NCBI GenBank assembly: GCA_029856435.1 | Contig: JAHQXB010000049.1 | Coordinates: 1-20,056 of the forward strand | Length of the DNA: 20,056 bases | DNA from: Candidatus Jordarchaeia archaeon | Lineage (GTDB): Archaea; Asgardarchaeota; Jordiarchaeia; Jordiarchaeales; Jordiarchaeaceae | Direction: 5' to 3' | Shown: positions 1,842-13,822 of the stretch, in pieces | Position numbering within the stretch: position 1 is the stretch's first letter | Layout of the letters: each line of letters begins with the position of its first letter | Translations under genes and position numbers: made by a program | The notes under the pieces: model-generated | Seen by the model: the letters and a program-made list of their open reading frames with translations, nothing else | Told to the model about the DNA's origin: nothing | Databases searched by the model: none

Positions 1842-1973
1842 TAGGTTGAAAACTTCTGAGGCTGAGGGCTTTGCTTTTTTTGGGTCTGTTTCTGAATTGT
1901 GCGCTCCAAAAAGATTTAATATGTTAAATATTTTTAATATATACTAAAGCATAAATTTGGATAGGCAGTAACC

Positions 1974-2729
1974 ATGGAGAAGAGATTTAAAGAAATCGCC
2001 GATAATATTACGAAGTTTATGCCCAAGAAATGTTACTTGGCATTTCTAGATGATAGTGGCAATATACTCTATTCTTCACTTATGGCAGAATCCGAGTCCG
2101 CTGTCAAACAGCTAAGTAGAGTTTTCCCAGTTTGGAGCCCAGGGGATTACCAGCTTAAAAAGTTGCCAAAAAGCAATCTACTGATTTATAAGGCTTCTCC
2201 CCGTATAATCCTTGCTATAGAGAGCTATGAAAAAGAAGGGGTTTTAATTGTTGCCGGTAAACGCATAGAAGAGAATTACATGGACTTATTCAGAGAGCTG
2301 GAAAAAGAGCTTCCGGCCCCTGGGGTCAAGGCAATATCTGAAACAGTCTCTGAGGCGTCCCTCAAGGTTGCACAAGGAGTTTCCGCAGCAGAAGAACTCG
2401 AAATAGCTAAATCAATCCCAGAGGAGGCTTATGCTAAAGAAATAGAGGGAGAAAAAATCAGCGAGCCAGTTTTAGCTCCCCCCTCCCAAAAAGAAGCCGA
2501 AGTAACCGTAACTGTGAGTTTTCCTGTGCTTGTCGACAAGAATATTTTGAAAAAGGTGAAGGAACCAATGGCCATAGCTATTCTCCAGCTTTGCGACGGT
2601 GACCATACTGTTGATGATATCGCAGAGGAACTCGGTATATCTAAAGCGCGAGTAATGATAACAACCGGCGATTTTGGAGCGAAGGGAGCACTAAAATATG
2701 TTTCGGGATTTAGGAAAATAAAGAGGTGA
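1974..2729 (+). CDS. Roadblock/longin/profilin-like N-terminal domain + acidic linker + C-terminal winged helix-turn-helix protein
   Basis: The first ~110 aa show a helix, beta-hairpin (YLAFLDDSGNILYSS), helix, three strands (YQLKK, NLLIYK, IILAIES), helix pattern. An E/A/K/P-rich linker follows. The C-terminal PVL...ILQLCDGDHTVDDIAEELGISKARV is a wHTH pattern. The fold call is inferred. Confidence 0.7.
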   Translation: MEKRFKEIADNITKFMPKKCYLAFLDDSGNILYSSLMAESESAVKQLSRVFPVWSPGDYQLKKLPKSNLLIYKASPRIILAIESYEKEGVLIVAGKRIEENYMDLFRELEKELPAPGVKAISETVSEASLKVAQGVSAAEELEIAKSIPEEAYAKEIEGEKISEPVLAPPSQKEAEVTVTVSFPVLVDKNILKKVKEPMAIAILQLCDGDHTVDDIAEELGISKARVMITTGDFGAKGALKYVSGFRKIKR

Positions 2730-2734
2730 AAAAT

Positions 2735-3286
2735 ATGGGTGTAAAAGGAGTATTAGCTTGGAGAGTCAAAGCCGAAAAAATTAACGTACTAGTTTATAGA
2801 TCCTTAGTACAAGCTTTAATTAGCTATTTAACGAAAATTCATGGGGATATGGCAATAGTTAATCAGGAGTTAAAGAAAATTGGGAGAGATATGGGTGAAT
2901 TTATCTATACCCGATATTTAGCTGCAACTCAAAGACCTGCAAAAAGTCTAGAAGAATTAGCTGATCCTAAGTCCGCCTACAACCTTGGATTCAAATTCTT
3001 CACAGGAACAACTTTTGACAAAACAGAATTCAAGAGAGAAGGAAGCGATGTGTACATAACTTACTCCATAGCGGATTGTCCACTCTGTAAAGATCTGATT
3101 TCGCCCTCACCTCAATTGTTTATGTGTAATACACTGTCTGGAATCCTAGAATGGATTGAAGAACATAGATTAGCAGATTGGGGTGCAGAGTCGGTTACTT
3201 GCAATGAGGTGCTCTGCCGAACCCGTGGAGACCCAGTATGCCAGTTCGTATACCATTTTCATCTGAAGAAACCTGAATTATTCTAA
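2735..3286 (+). CDS. V4R-domain, TRAPP Bet3 (TRAPPC3)-like protein
   Basis: VNQELKKIGRDMG, GFKFFTG, DCPLC, CNTLSGIL and EVLCRTRGDPVCQF follow the Bet3/V4R fold pattern. GAGGTGA RBS at 2723-2729 overlaps the upstream stop and favours ATG 2735 (the ORF track starts at GTG 2726). Confidence 0.8.
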   Translation: MGVKGVLAWRVKAEKINVLVYRSLVQALISYLTKIHGDMAIVNQELKKIGRDMGEFIYTRYLAATQRPAKSLEELADPKSAYNLGFKFFTGTTFDKTEFKREGSDVYITYSIADCPLCKDLISPSPQLFMCNTLSGILEWIEEHRLADWGAESVTCNEVLCRTRGDPVCQFVYHFHLKKPELF

Positions 3287-3309: not shown

Positions 3310-3324
3310 GCTTCCTTTTTTATT
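3310..3324 (+). terminator. Possible oligo-T archaeal terminator
   Basis: CTTCCTTTTTTATT lies about 25 nt after the stop of the Bet3-like gene. Archaeal intrinsic termination uses U-rich tracts. Confidence 0.3.
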
Positions 3325-3500
3325 AGAACTGTTAAAATGGGTGAACCCACAATTCTTAACGTATTTTTCCGATTCGAAGTATACACCAATATTTTTTGTT
3401 TCCCTCTCCCATTCTCTTAATTTACGGGAATTAAATTTTTATAGTGAGAGTAAACTTTTTCTGTAGTCAACAGTCTGTGATTGATGCTGGTTGGATAGTT

Positions 3501-4898
3501 ATGAGAATGCGGAGAGAGCTGGATCCGTTAGGAGAGAAGGAGGTGCCATTTGAGGCTTATTATGGAATTCAGACTCAAAGAGCCCTAGAAAATTTTCCCG
3601 TTAGTGGGTTGAGGGAACACCCCTTTTTTGTAAAGGCTTACGTTATGGTAAAGAAGGCTGCTGCTCTAACCAATATGGAGGTGGGTTTTCTAGATCCCAA
3701 AATAGGGAAGGCCATAGTTCAAGCTTGTGATGAAGTTCTGGAAGGCAAACTAATGGACCAATTTGTGGTGGATGTTTTCCAGGCAGGGGCGGGTACCTCC
3801 TTTAATATGAATGTAAATGAGGTGCTGGCTAATCGCGCCTTGGAAATCATTGGGAGGCCAAAAGGTGAATACAAAACAATAAGCCCAAACGACCACGTTA
3901 ATATGGCCCAGTCAACTAATGATACCTTTCCCACCGCTATGCATGTAGCCACACTTCTAGCTCTACAAAAACTGTTTAGTGTTCTGGAAAATCTAAGAGA
4001 TGCTTTTCGCAAGAAGGGGGAGGAATTTTCAGACGTAATAAAATCTGGGAGAACCCACCTTAATGACGCGTTACCAGTTACTTTGGGACAGGAATTCCAG
4101 GCCTACGCGTCAGCAATAGACCGAGCCTTAAGACAGTTAAAAATTAGGAAACAGGAGATAGAAGAAGTAGCTTTGGGGGGCACAGCAACTGGAACTGGCG
4201 TTAATACCCACCCCAAATATAGAGAAACAGTGGTGAAAAAGCTCTCTGAAATAAGTTCTCTTAACCTCAAACCAGCCTCTGACCCCTTCGAAGCACAACA
4301 GAGCCAACTCAAAATAGCCACAGTATCAAGTGGACTAAAAGAACTAGCCCTGGAACTAATTCGCATCGCAAATGACCTACGTCTCCTCAACTCGGGACCA
4401 ACCACTGGCCTCTCAGAAATTGTACTACCCGCAGTTCAACCAGGCTCATCAATAATGCCCGGGAAAGTGAATCCCGTGATGTGTGAGTGCCTAAATATGA
4501 TAGGTTTCCAAATCGTGGGAAACGACCTCACCATATCACTGGCCGTGCAGGCAGGACAACTAGAACTAAACGTGATGATGCCCGTAATAATCCACAACCT
4601 CCTCCAATCCATAGAACTCTTGGTAAACTATCTTCCCGTTTTTACTACAAAATGTATTTTGGACATAAAAGCCAACCGTGAAAGGTGCAAAGAGTACCTC
4701 GAAAAGAACCCCTCGCTGGTCACCCTTCTATCGCCACACATTGGATACCTTAAGGCGGCTGAAATCGCAAAAGAAGCACTCAGCAGAGGAATATCCGTCA
4801 GAAAGTTGGTTTTAGAAAAGGGATTAATGGACAAAAAAACAATAGAAGAAATCTTCCAACCTGATTCCCTAATAGGAGCCAAAAAAAGAACCACCTGA
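3501..4898 (+). CDS. aspA: Aspartate ammonia-lyase / class II fumarate hydratase family lyase
   Basis: RELDPLGEKEVPFEAYYGIQTQRA, GAGTSFNMNVNE, GRTH and the signature GSSIMPGKVNP. GAGTS is closer to aspartases than to FumC (GSGTS). Likely start is ATG 3501 (the track opens at 3444). Confidence 0.85.
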   Translation: MRMRRELDPLGEKEVPFEAYYGIQTQRALENFPVSGLREHPFFVKAYVMVKKAAALTNMEVGFLDPKIGKAIVQACDEVLEGKLMDQFVVDVFQAGAGTSFNMNVNEVLANRALEIIGRPKGEYKTISPNDHVNMAQSTNDTFPTAMHVATLLALQKLFSVLENLRDAFRKKGEEFSDVIKSGRTHLNDALPVTLGQEFQAYASAIDRALRQLKIRKQEIEEVALGGTATGTGVNTHPKYRETVVKKLSEISSLNLKPASDPFEAQQSQLKIATVSSGLKELALELIRIANDLRLLNSGPTTGLSEIVLPAVQPGSSIMPGKVNPVMCECLNMIGFQIVGNDLTISLAVQAGQLELNVMMPVIIHNLLQSIELLVNYLPVFTTKCILDIKANRERCKEYLEKNPSLVTLLSPHIGYLKAAEIAKEALSRGISVRKLVLEKGLMDKKTIEEIFQPDSLIGAKKRTT

Positions 4899-12157: not shown

Positions 12158-13822
12158 TCAAGTATACGCATACATTCCAATTTCCTCTATTTTGATTAAT
12201 GGGGGGTCGATTTTGGATTTTAAAGATATTTCTATTATGGGGGCGGTTTTAAATGTGCTTGGTTTAGTGTTTCTGTTTTGGAGAGAGCAGCTCTTGTACC
12301 TCCGTCTAAAATGATACGGCCTTTGTTCATAACGATTACTCTGCGGCAATATTCAGCGACAATTCTCATATCATGCGTTATCAGTATAATGGTCTTACCG
12401 TTAGAATTAAAATTTAGAATAGATCCAAGAGTTTTTTATCTCTGCATTTCTTCAAATCCATGTTTTCAAGAATTTCTTTAACCATCTTCGATTTATTATC
12501 TTTAACACCATATTCGATTTCAGATTCAACGTTGTCACAGAAAATCTGGTAGTCTGGATTCTGAAATAAGGACCCGATTTTTTCGTTTAGTCTTTTTATT
12601 TTTCCTAGGTTAACACCGCCAATTCTTATTGTTCCTTTCTTCGGTTTTAGCAGACCAGCTAGAATCATAGCTAATGTGGTTTTCCCTGAACCGTTTGATC
12701 CTATCAAGGCAACGAATTCACGCTCATTTATGGTAGGGTTGGCGTGTTTTAATACTATTTCACCGTGGTACCCAAAAGATAGGTCTTCAATCTTGATGAT
12801 CGGCTTATCCTGCTTCGCCAAAACGGGATTCTCACCATTCTGCTTAATTTTTGTTTTTTTGATGGATAATCTTTAAAACAAGTTACTGCATCATCAATGG
12901 TTAATGGTACCTCCCTGGTTTCTATCCTACTTTCCAATTTTAGGAAAATCTACACAGTTTGGGCATTCTTAACCCGACATTTTCTATTGTCGGATTCAGA
13001 AAGATGGATCTCGGATTACCTTTCGCTATTATTTTTCCGTTTTCCAATACAATCATTCAACTCGCGTATCTAACAATTTAAGTCGTGCTCTGCTATGACT
13101 AAGGTTATACCCCTTTCGTTTAGTTTGTTAAGAATACTCAGTACCATGTCTCTTCCCTCGGCGTCGAGGTCTGCTGTTGGTTCATCAAGCACCAGAATTT
13201 CTGGTTTGACCGATGTTGCTGAAGCAATGAGCACTCTCTGCTTCTCTCCACCGGACAGTTCAAACAGATAACGGGTTTGCAAATCTCTGATATCCACCGC
13301 GTCTAAAGCAAAATCCACACATCTTACTATCTCATTCTTGGTATATAACAAAAATTTTCAGCAATAAAAGCCAGCTCGTCCTCAGTGATGCAGATTTATT
13401 CGGCTCCATCTCCCTATTAAGGCTCCAAATCGTGAAAGAAGCCCTATAAACACCCCCCTTTTTGAGGCGAAACCGAACAATTCTACATCGCCACTCGTCC
13501 TCAACGGTAACATTGAAAAGCTGAGCCTCTGGGTTCTGGAACACCATTCCCACTTTGGTAGCCAACACGTTTATATCGTTCTCCCTCGTGTCCAGTTCAC
13601 AAATACTTACCGGGTCCTTCATTTCCCCACTAAGGCGTGAGGAATTATGCCGTTGAGAGAGTACAGAAGTGTTGATTTTCCTTGCCAGATTGACCTGCAA
13701 CAACCAGAAACTTCCTCCCTCCTAACGTCAAGATTTATGTTCTTCAACACATACTCTTCCGAGATTGGATACTTATAACACAAGCCCCTTATCCTAGCGA
13801 TCACGTTCTCCTTCACGGCCAT
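12158..13822 (-). pseudogene. Fragmented ECF/ABC transporter double-ATPase (EcfA/CbiO-like)
   Basis: Ordered fragments in different frames: YKYPISEEYVLKNINLDV, GKSTL, VGMVFQNPEAQLFNVTVEDE, LSGGEKQRV...LVLDEPTADLD, second domain GSNGSGKTTL...LFQNPDYQIF, then ITHDMRIVAEYCRRVIVMNKG. There are several frameshifts and stops, one insertion, and the second signature/Walker B segment is missing near 12420-12440. Confidence 0.85.
13383..13493. mobile_element. MITE-like insertion (family B, ~111 bp) inside the ecfA pseudogene
   Basis: Direct repeat CTCGTCCTCA at 13375-13384 and 13494-13503. Removing the insert plus one repeat restores TVEDE-LAFIAEN. Imperfect TIRs GTGATGCAGATTTATTCGG vs GCGATGTAGAATTGTTCGG (15/19). 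The TSD can be read as 8-10 bp. Confidence 0.75.

Follow-up and report, generated by a model that had tools for sequence, protein, structure and literature searches.

A Bet3-like gene paired with a winged-helix gene across Asgard lineages: a candidate TRAPP-like module in a Jordarchaeia genome

Contig JAHQXB010000049.1 of Candidatus Jordarchaeia archaeon (assembly GCA_029856435.1, 3.54 Mb in 181 contigs), whose entire length of 20,056 bp is the window analysed here, carries two consecutive genes on its forward strand that we call gene A and gene B. Gene B encodes a stand-alone Bet3/TRAPPC3-fold protein, and gene A a protein in which a roadblock-fold domain is joined by a disordered linker to a winged helix. 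We find that a winged-helix gene of the gene A type stands next to a Bet3-like gene across Asgard lineages, and that the two products very probably act together. A first-pass annotation had presented this translationally coupled pair as a candidate proto-TRAPP module; its observation is confirmed, and its interpretation, in which the two products form a complex that mirrors the TRAPP core and acts on a small GTPase encoded elsewhere, is partly supported.

Gene B is a real Bet3/TRAPPC3-fold protein that is nearer to TRAPPC3/Bet3 than to V4R sensors in profile, in fold and in a quick tree. As a single sequence, it stays below the curated Pfam cut-offs both for V4R (PF02830; E 1.9e-5, 25.1 bits, cut-off 31) and for TRAPP (PF04051; E 1.3e-4, 22.1 bits, cut-off 27), and among the 14 V4R-type matches in the genome, it alone also matches TRAPP. 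In the wider gene B family, V4R is matched by 28 of 39 members and TRAPP by 15, while the Bet3-like proteins of the thorarchaeal cassettes discussed below, at 34.3 and 42 bits, exceed the TRAPP cut-off. A profile built from 17 close gene B homologues (A1) was compared with all Protein Data Bank sequences, and all 15 significant matches were TRAPPC3/Bet3 chains, both Thorarchaeota TRAPPC3 structures included. The best of these was Naegleria TRAPPC3 (E 1.6e-9, residues 12-178), against which HMMER returned the same blocks (VNQELKKIG, GFKFFTG and CN..(A/S)GI) that had first been aligned to Bet3 by eye. Among 1.84 billion representative proteins, the same profile reached only 46 at E<=1e-3. The named ones are Asgard proteins (Baldr, Borr, Hel and Loki) and a few labelled Thermoproteota or Bathyarchaeota, and one of the 46 is a genuine eukaryotic Bet3 (P0085), reached at E 2.4e-5, which matches Pfam TRAPP at 1.4e-34 and has relatives annotated as BET3 or TRAPP subunit. 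For both genes, the closest homologues carry the labels Candidatus Freyarchaeota, Jordarchaeia, Jordarchaeum or Freyarchaeum.

The AlphaFold2 model of gene B (predicted local distance difference test score, pLDDT, 87; predicted template modelling score, pTM, 0.81) shows the two-layer alpha/beta fold of Bet3 with its N-terminal helical hairpin. With Foldseek, the top 30 matches are Bet3/TRAPPC3 chains (E ~1e-8, template modelling (TM) score ~0.7), and MopR and H-NOX appear near 5e-4. VIA, a structure alignment that is independent of Foldseek and was run against 48,161 chains, gives Z 17.7 for the thorarchaeal TRAPPC3 structure 7yh2 (root-mean-square deviation (rmsd) 2.8 over 151 residues), 16.4 for mammalian Bet3 (2cfh_A) and 14.8 and 13.1 for other Bet3-family subunits of TRAPP (7b6d_F and 3cue_B), compared with 10.4 for PoxR, 10.2 for DmpR and 9.0 for the V4R protein MJ1460. 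In sequence, gene B keeps the conserved Cys/Glu residues that act as metal ligands in the beta-alpha-beta C-terminal part of V4R proteins. In the alignment columns of the close family, C115, C118, C131, E158, C169 and H174 are invariant and C161 is nearly so, which bears out the earlier claim that the V4R cysteine ligands are retained; in the wider family, C118, E158, C161 and C169 are at least 90% conserved. The E-x2-C-x7-C spacing also appears to fit the Zn site of MopR and PoxR. In the thorarchaeal TRAPPC3, Zn is held by four cysteines; eukaryotic Bet3 has a hydrogen bond in place of this site (PMC10933270).

A quick tree of 63 sequences, with branch support from the Shimodaira-Hasegawa-like approximate likelihood ratio test (SH-aLRT), was rooted on the genome's own long V4R proteins and contains many long branches; eukaryotes were represented by the Bet3 subfamily only, bacterial V4R sensors were left out, and all we take from it is that gene B does not cluster with these long proteins. 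Eukaryotic Bet3 comes together with the stand-alone Bet3-like proteins of archaea, apart from five of the six long multi-domain V4R proteins of the genome (SH-aLRT 89). Eukaryotic Bet3 is nested with thorarchaeal cassette proteins, a protein of genome G307 and a few TACK, Loki and Hel sequences (SH-aLRT 95), and the Frey/Baldr subfamily of the window lies in a neighbouring cluster. Within its limits, the tree does not place gene B among generic V4R sensors, as a refutation of the first-pass annotation would have required. Other archaeal proteins lie nearer to eukaryotic Bet3 than the protein of the window does. The long V4R proteins are themselves an expanded family in this genome, distinct from gene B: on contig C180 (29900-35200; L007, L010, L012 and L013), four tandem ORFs (open reading frames) of ~425-430 aa each carry a C-terminal V4R domain above the Pfam cut-off.

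Gene A has 27 homologues, all from Asgard archaea and all annotated as "hypothetical", and the ESM Atlas returns only unnamed Asgard clusters for it. Its AlphaFold2 model has two domains with pLDDT >90. For the first (residues 1-115), the predicted secondary structure runs a-b-b-a-b-b-b-a, the helix-first order of a roadblock rather than a longin domain. VIA aligns it with a Lokiarchaeota roadblock (8yqk) at Z 13.9 (rmsd 2.5, 106 residues) and, at Z ~10-11, with roadblock chains from Streptomyces and MK-D1 and with MglB and LAMTOR chains; Foldseek gives target-normalised TM scores of 0.6-0.69 against roadblock chains. Gene A is missing from the genome's 19 Pfam Robl_LC7 (PF03259) matches at E<=1, and hhalign against the genome's own roadblocks is marginal (E 1.6e-3, probability 16%). 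Because the family model gives no match, we treat the domain as roadblock-fold and not as a member of PF03259. The earlier description of the protein as a longin/roadblock domain with a winged helix therefore keeps its roadblock and its winged helix and loses its longin.

In the model of the winged helix, a strand at 176-186 is followed by helices and a strand at 240-250, and the first and last strands pair. VIA scores are Z 8.5 against the HTH_47 type structure 3k9t and Z 8.9 against a SEA-complex chain (rmsd 1.6, 66 residues). The best Pfam match of gene A is the ArsR-type model HTH_5, at 22 bits, exactly the cut-off; gene A is also the only DUF742 match in the genome (E 0.063). When Protein Data Bank sequences were searched with the profile of the winged helix or of gene A, nothing beyond weak matches to generic helix-turn-helix (HTH) proteins appeared. 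The charge and isoelectric point (pI) of the winged helix do not decide on DNA binding. Both domains have paralogues in the genome, namely a stand-alone 138-aa ORF with 36% identity to the roadblock-like domain and a stand-alone 313-aa ORF for the winged helix; gene A paralogues are located at C84:1415-1828, C74:10941-11684 and C89:25934-26875, with no Bet3-like or GTPase neighbour within 5-6 kb.

The pairing of the two genes is widely conserved. According to the A1 profile, a Bet3-like gene is present in 129 of the 400 genomes of the phylum, in all genomes of some families and in none of others (0/135 in the largest). From other genomes, we took the 29 best loci, one of which begins at a contig edge; in 22 of the 28 that can be assessed, a gene matching the gene A winged-helix profile lies immediately upstream and in the same direction, usually 4-25 nt away or overlapping. 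Paired loci occur in Freyarchaeia/Jordarchaeia, Baldrarchaeota, Atabeyarchaeia, Thorarchaeia and further unnamed families; one large family (f31) is assigned to Thorarchaeia on the strength of a gene that agrees with the crystallised AB25 TRAPPC3 chain over the aligned stretch. The winged helices of Freyarchaeia and Thorarchaeia are homologous (hhalign probability 96%, E 1.7e-9) and share the motif L-C-D-G-x2-T-x2-(E/D)-I-A-x-E-L. Moreover, duplication of the cassette as a unit is seen in the Freyarchaeia genome G117, which is closed, and in five thorarchaeal genera. Since the pairing recurs across several Asgard lineages, it goes far beyond chance.

The N-terminal domain of the upstream partner, on the other hand, varies among roadblock, longin-like and Zn-ribbon-like types. 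A roadblock N-terminus is found in Freyarchaeia (from the fold model), in Thorarchaeia (from profiles), whose partner proteins carry a second winged helix in tandem, and probably in Atabeyarchaeia (from the sequence pattern only). A longin-like, strand-first N-terminus is found in families f24 and f25 and in G307, while in family f14 (L029/L093, G111:C312; L092, G101:C24), a short partner of 160-186 aa has a CxxC-containing domain before the same winged helix. The thorarchaeal N-terminal domain matches the roadblocks of the window's genome (hhalign E 3.5e-5), but the direct Frey-Thor comparison is not significant (hhalign E 0.17), so the homology of these domains across classes rests on fold and position. 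Two genomes, G291 and G309, encode direct fusions of a longin-like with the Bet3-like domain, 352 and 296 aa long. For the N-terminal domain of the first fusion, the nearest ESM Atlas entries are Asgard clusters in which 34% of members have Fuz_longin_1 (score 0.88), which we regard as a lead only; the longin of the second shares the motif SFFSAIQSFGK with the longin-winged-helix protein of G307, and the Bet3-like parts of these two cluster in the tree. A longin-TRAPPC3 fusion from a Heimdall archaeon has been published (PMC10933270). Given the upstream winged-helix gene in most loci, the varying N-termini and the longin-Bet3-like fusions, it is very probable that the products of A and B work together.

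The closest experimental reference point is the thorarchaeal TRAPPC3 (7yh2, 7yh3; PMC10933270), which has the same fold as gene B and a cysteine-based metal site. Like gene B, the crystallised gene (L078:3613-4092) is located directly downstream of a roadblock-winged-helix gene, an upstream partner or operon that PMC10933270 does not mention. Gene B belongs to a different subfamily from 7yh2, the Frey/Baldr type, and the two share 17% identity; its thorarchaeal orthologue is the protein of the first cassette, not the crystallised one. In five thorarchaeal genera (L078 = G338:C31:11500-21450; L094, L095, L096 and L099), the two cassettes are part of a fully conserved order of ~8 kb, which begins with L13e-like and PfkB-like kinase genes, continues with a gene for a roadblock domain and two winged helices plus a TRAPPC3-like gene, two small membrane-protein ORFs on opposite strands, and a second gene of the same roadblock and tandem winged-helix type plus the crystallised TRAPPC3, and ends with genes for a third V4R-type protein, for an HTH protein of the HVO_0163 type and for an ABC ATPase. 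Flanking genes in this order that were first suspected to encode GTPases proved to encode the PfkB-type kinase and small membrane proteins.

In the window, both ORFs of the pair are confirmed, and their junction and flanking signals (Table 1) suggest a compact transcription unit. The Shine-Dalgarno-like GAGGTGA ahead of gene B contains the stop codon of gene A, as had been read from the sequence before, and the ATG of gene B begins five bases past it. An in-frame GTG at 2726, overlapping the gene A stop, is an alternative start, but the ATG at 2735 is the likely one because the N-terminus MGVKG is kept in orthologues of other Asgard lineages. The junction AAAGAGGTGA-N5/6-(A/T)TG is kept in seven Freyarchaeia/Jordarchaeia loci, with ATG or TTG as the start, whereas in a locus from Baldrarchaeota, the spacer is 45 nt long and includes a GGTGAT of its own. 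In the ~70 nt 5′ of the gene A ATG, one base differs among four close species, and the sequence farther upstream is variable; the AAAAAGATTTAWTATG core of the putative promoter is found again ahead of the G117 pair at 3.195 Mb, one of two in that genome. An alignment of the region upstream of gene A revealed this strongly conserved A/T-rich promoter-like region and no convincing operator palindrome. A T-run similar to the one past gene B occurs at 1875-1881, downstream of the preceding deacetylase-like gene. Because T-runs follow both that gene and gene B and a promoter-like stretch precedes gene A, the pair looks like a self-contained bicistronic unit.

Table 1. Features of the gene pair and its putative expression signals in the window.
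Feature	Position	Strand	Description
Putative archaeal promoter	1908-1944	+	A/T-rich, BRE/TATA-like (transcription factor B recognition element and TATA box): AAAAAGA + TTTAATAT (1908-1922), second A/T box TTTTTAATATATA (1932-1944)
Gene A	1974-2729	+	ORF, 251 aa: roadblock domain and winged helix joined by a disordered acidic linker
Gene A residues 1-115	1974-2318	+	Divergent roadblock/LC7-fold domain (model, VIA, Foldseek)
Gene A residues 116-175	2319-2498	+	Low-complexity acidic linker; pLDDT <50 at 118-173; poorly conserved, length variable; pI 4.5
Gene A residues 176-251	2499-2726	+	Winged helix with flanking strands, HTH_47/DUF742-like; motif LCDG..T..DIAEEL
Shine-Dalgarno-like GAGGTGA	2723-2729	+	Encloses the gene A stop TGA (2727-2729)
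Gene B	2735-3286	+	ORF, 183 aa: stand-alone V4R-type protein with the Bet3/TRAPPC3 fold
Conserved metal-site residues of gene B	3077-3256	+	C115 (3077-3079), C118 (3086-3088), C131 (3125-3127), E158, C161, C169 (3239-3241), H174 (3254-3256)
Oligo-T run, likely archaeal terminator	3316-3321	+	30 nt past the gene B stop

We tentatively favour, at somewhat less than even odds, the reading of the pair as a GTPase-linked module of the TRAPP or conservon kind. The products of the bicistronic operon would form one hetero-oligomer. In it, gene B, probably a dimer, would contribute the Bet3/TRAPPC3 fold, with the Cys/Glu metal site tying its sheet to a helix and enclosing a possible ligand pocket. Gene A would offer a roadblock domain for dimerisation and docking, with the HTH_47/DUF742-like winged helix tethered to it through the flexible acidic linker. 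The most likely role would be to regulate, or serve as a scaffold for, one of the ~30 Ras-superfamily GTPases whose genes lie in other parts of the genome; any such GTPase client, together with any guanine nucleotide exchange factor (GEF) or GTPase-activating protein (GAP) activity, is speculative. A physical complex of two TRAPP-core folds can reasonably be inferred because gene B is Bet3-like, gene A has a roadblock fold, the pair is widely conserved and longin-Bet3-like fusions exist.

The core of eukaryotic TRAPP, a Rab GEF, combines Bet3/TRAPPC3, Trs31 and Trs33 with the longins Bet5, Trs23 and Trs20. The A-B pair would be analogous to this Bet3-plus-longin core, and gene B homologous to part of it: it has the Bet3 fold and profile-level homology, and its partner belongs to the roadblock/longin fold class. 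In contrast to TRAPP, however, the partner is a roadblock rather than a longin and has a winged helix that TRAPP lacks, and unlike eukaryotic Bet3, gene B keeps the metal site. The multi-subunit rod, the GTPase client and the GEF activity of TRAPP have no evident counterpart here. The second analogy is with actinobacterial conservons and the mycobacterial Mfp operon, which encode a roadblock protein (CvnB/MfpD), a DUF742 protein (CvnC/MfpC) and a GTPase (CvnD/MfpB). As in those operons, a roadblock and a DUF742-like winged helix occur together, in gene A as a fusion, and relatives of the gene A winged helix adjoin Ras-like GTPase genes in other Asgard genomes. Nevertheless, the similarity to DUF742 is weak, the A-B operon contains neither a GTPase nor a sensor kinase, and conservons lack a Bet3-fold component. 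In the Mfp system, MfpC has been reported to be a GEF and MfpD a GAP of the small GTPase MfpB (PMC11343762, PMC9769811).

Gene contexts make a GTPase connection plausible for the winged-helix and Bet3-like families, while for this operon, the link is circumstantial. The genome of the window has, besides its Ras-superfamily matches, 15-19 roadblock matches, some of them in GTPase-roadblock clusters. The winged-helix family is present in 331 of 400 genomes, and a Ras-like neighbour was seen in 5 of ~24 inspected loci, where roughly 0.7-1.5 would be expected. In genome G307, the genes for a Ras-like GTPase and for one longin-winged-helix and one Bet3-like protein form a co-directional cluster with gaps of 149-178 nt; in G116, the Bet3-like gene is within a cluster of three GTPases and a roadblock; in G310, a divergent GTPase adjoins the pair, and in G288, a Ras-like gene is 4 kb away. 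The GTPase genes of MK-D1 are reported, as a rule, to share no operon with roadblock, longin or TRAPPC3 genes (PMC10933270). One of the winged-helix loci with such neighbours (L079, G127:C11:525500-534500) contains three consecutive winged-helix-family proteins (394, 317 and 354 aa) followed by two same-strand roadblock-GTPase (Rag-like) fusions and is a possible large GTPase-regulator operon.

Several observations weigh against the GTPase-linked reading. In the genome of the window, the 5-6 kb around the pair and around the gene A paralogues contain no Ras-like or roadblock gene and no other Bet3/V4R gene. Ras-like genes occur in only 3 of 21 sampled neighbourhoods of the Bet3-like family, and although these hold ~6 GTPase genes where ~2 would be expected, the signal is weak because the ~6 are clustered. 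The relation of the winged helix to known modules stays below the curated cut-offs throughout: among 16 family members from different lineages, HTH_47 (PF16221) is matched by all 16, at best with 5.8e-5, and DUF742 (PF05331) by 11, at best with 4.6e-4. Some members of the family, on the other hand, match DNA-binding families well (TrmB at 1.2e-8, HTH_24 at 7e-7). Both genes are present but unlinked in family f2 (of the same order as the window's genome) and in Baldrarchaeum yapensis (G005). For the thorarchaeal TRAPPC3, Tran et al. favoured ligand binding and saw no membrane targeting (PMC10933270). Finally, what accompanies the Bet3-like gene constantly is the winged helix, not the roadblock or longin domain, a point that the first-pass annotation had overlooked. 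Such a constant partner fits equally well with a split sensor-regulator in which a winged HTH and a V4R module work together, as in MsvR.

That alternative is a serious rival, even if we consider it less likely than the GTPase-linked reading. MsvR, a redox-sensing regulator of methanogens, has a winged HTH followed by V4R, and V4R is also the sensor domain of PoxR, DmpR and MopR. By this account, the pair would be a one-component transcription regulator divided over two genes: the winged helix of A would bind DNA, the cysteine cluster of B would sense redox state, a metal or a hydrophobic ligand and modulate A, and the roadblock would dimerise A or add a second sensor. The A-B pair has the same combination of a winged helix and a cysteine-bearing V4R-type module with a conserved metal site, and across the gene boundary, the two follow the domain order found inside MsvR, but they belong to separate polypeptides, the Bet3-like fold of B is complete, and there is an additional roadblock domain. 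The sole NCBIfam match of gene B is in fact MsvR (NF053755; E 1.1e-3), yet at 18.7 bits against a cut-off of 220 and over the V4R part only. In structure, B resembles TRAPPC3/Bet3 far more than V4R sensors (Z 16-18 vs 9-10), although its six conserved cysteines and a histidine would suit a sensor.

The winged helix is similarly ambiguous. DNA binding would agree with the ArsR-type best match of gene A and with the matches of several family members to TrmB, HTH_24, IclR or AsnC HTH models (1e-6 to 1e-8), as well as with a mildly basic winged helix in most lineages (pI 8-10), but in Thorarchaeia, it is neutral to acidic (pI 5.9-6.9), and the recognition helix is its least conserved part, the invariant residues lying in the LCDG turn and helix 2. 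HTH_47 itself was defined on a circularly permuted winged helix and is described as probably recognising peptides or substrates (PMC4000134). A relative from Thermoproteales (P0086), in which an S10_plectin-type winged helix is fused to V4R, comes near the eukaryote-containing clade in the tree and would suit a sensor-regulator; the longin-Bet3-like fusions, in contrast, have no winged helix at all, and a disordered linker of 60 residues and the tandem winged helices of Thorarchaeia would be unusual for one-component regulators. If the pair were such a regulator, the Bet3 fold would still be serving as a sensor module of gene regulation in the closest archaeal relatives of eukaryotes.

A bolder version of the GTPase-linked reading, which we regard as unlikely, makes the cassette a direct forerunner of the TRAPP core. 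Roadblock or longin subunits would bridge a Bet3-fold dimer, the complex would load GTP onto an Asgard Rab-like GTPase, and the winged helix would be an ancestral module of the GEF (DUF742-like) or NPRL type that was later lost or moved in eukaryotes. Were this true, a Rab-activating machine would predate the origin of endomembranes.

Gene A also invites comparison with NPRL2 and NPRL3 of the Rag GAP GATOR1/SEACIT, which have an N-terminal longin, bearing a catalytic Arg finger, and C-terminal winged-helix-like domains. Foldseek aligns the whole of gene A to NPRL2-sized GATOR1/SEAC chains at E 7e-5 to 9e-4, the identity of the chains being inferred from their length, and two of the winged-helix relatives weakly match Pfam HTH_NPRL3. 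The likeness is one of domain order only, because TM scores over the whole chain are 0.23-0.25 and the rmsd exceeds 20 Å (22 Å for the best). Moreover, gene A has no Pfam NPRL match, its N-terminal domain has the roadblock and not the longin topology, and both of its domains are common folds.

A third possibility, which seems to us quite improbable, follows a suggestion of Tran et al. for the thorarchaeal TRAPPC3: gene B would be a carrier or chaperone for a small molecule or lipid, and gene A an adaptor that localises it or hands it over, with neither GTPases nor DNA involved. The internal cavities of the thorarchaeal protein resemble those of palmitate-binding Bet3 and phenol-binding PoxR (PMC10933270), and the two thorarchaeal cassettes flank conserved small membrane-protein genes beside an ABC-transporter ATPase. 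No membrane-protein gene accompanies the pair in the window, however, where it stands between a deacetylase-like gene and one for a class II aspartase/fumarase; no ligand is known, and roadblock or longin partners are typical of GTPase regulators. That A and B are merely co-transcribed neighbours with unrelated functions is very hard to believe, as the two stay adjacent across lineages with entirely different gene surroundings, are duplicated together and have counterparts with fused domains, and only the unlinked genes of f2 and B. yapensis speak for it.

Asgard TRAPPC3-like, roadblock and longin proteins, each known individually and with solved structures, as well as one longin-TRAPPC3 fusion, had already been published (PMC10933270). 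In the open-access full-text literature on Asgard V4R/TRAPP or TRAPPC3/roadblock, we found no description of the cassette; what is new is the winged-helix gene next to the Bet3-like gene across Asgard lineages, the crystallised thorarchaeal TRAPPC3 included. Operons have been said to give little guidance on which of these proteins work together (PMC10933270). The cassette names a concrete partner for a Bet3-fold protein, including the upstream neighbour of the crystallised gene, and therefore makes the question of a pre-eukaryotic TRAPP-like or Ragulator-like GTPase regulator directly testable.

Some minor features of the window and of related loci deserve mention. The pair is flanked by a histone-deacetylase-family gene (1065-1841, +) and the class II aspartase/fumarase gene (3444-4898, +). 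A deacetylase-like gene is also located upstream in close Freyarchaeia species and at the 3.195 Mb locus of G117, but not at the other G117 pair. Farther along the window, an ABC-transporter ATPase ORF (12414-12821, -) of 134 aa matches only the first ~100 positions of the ABC_tran model and looks truncated or interrupted.

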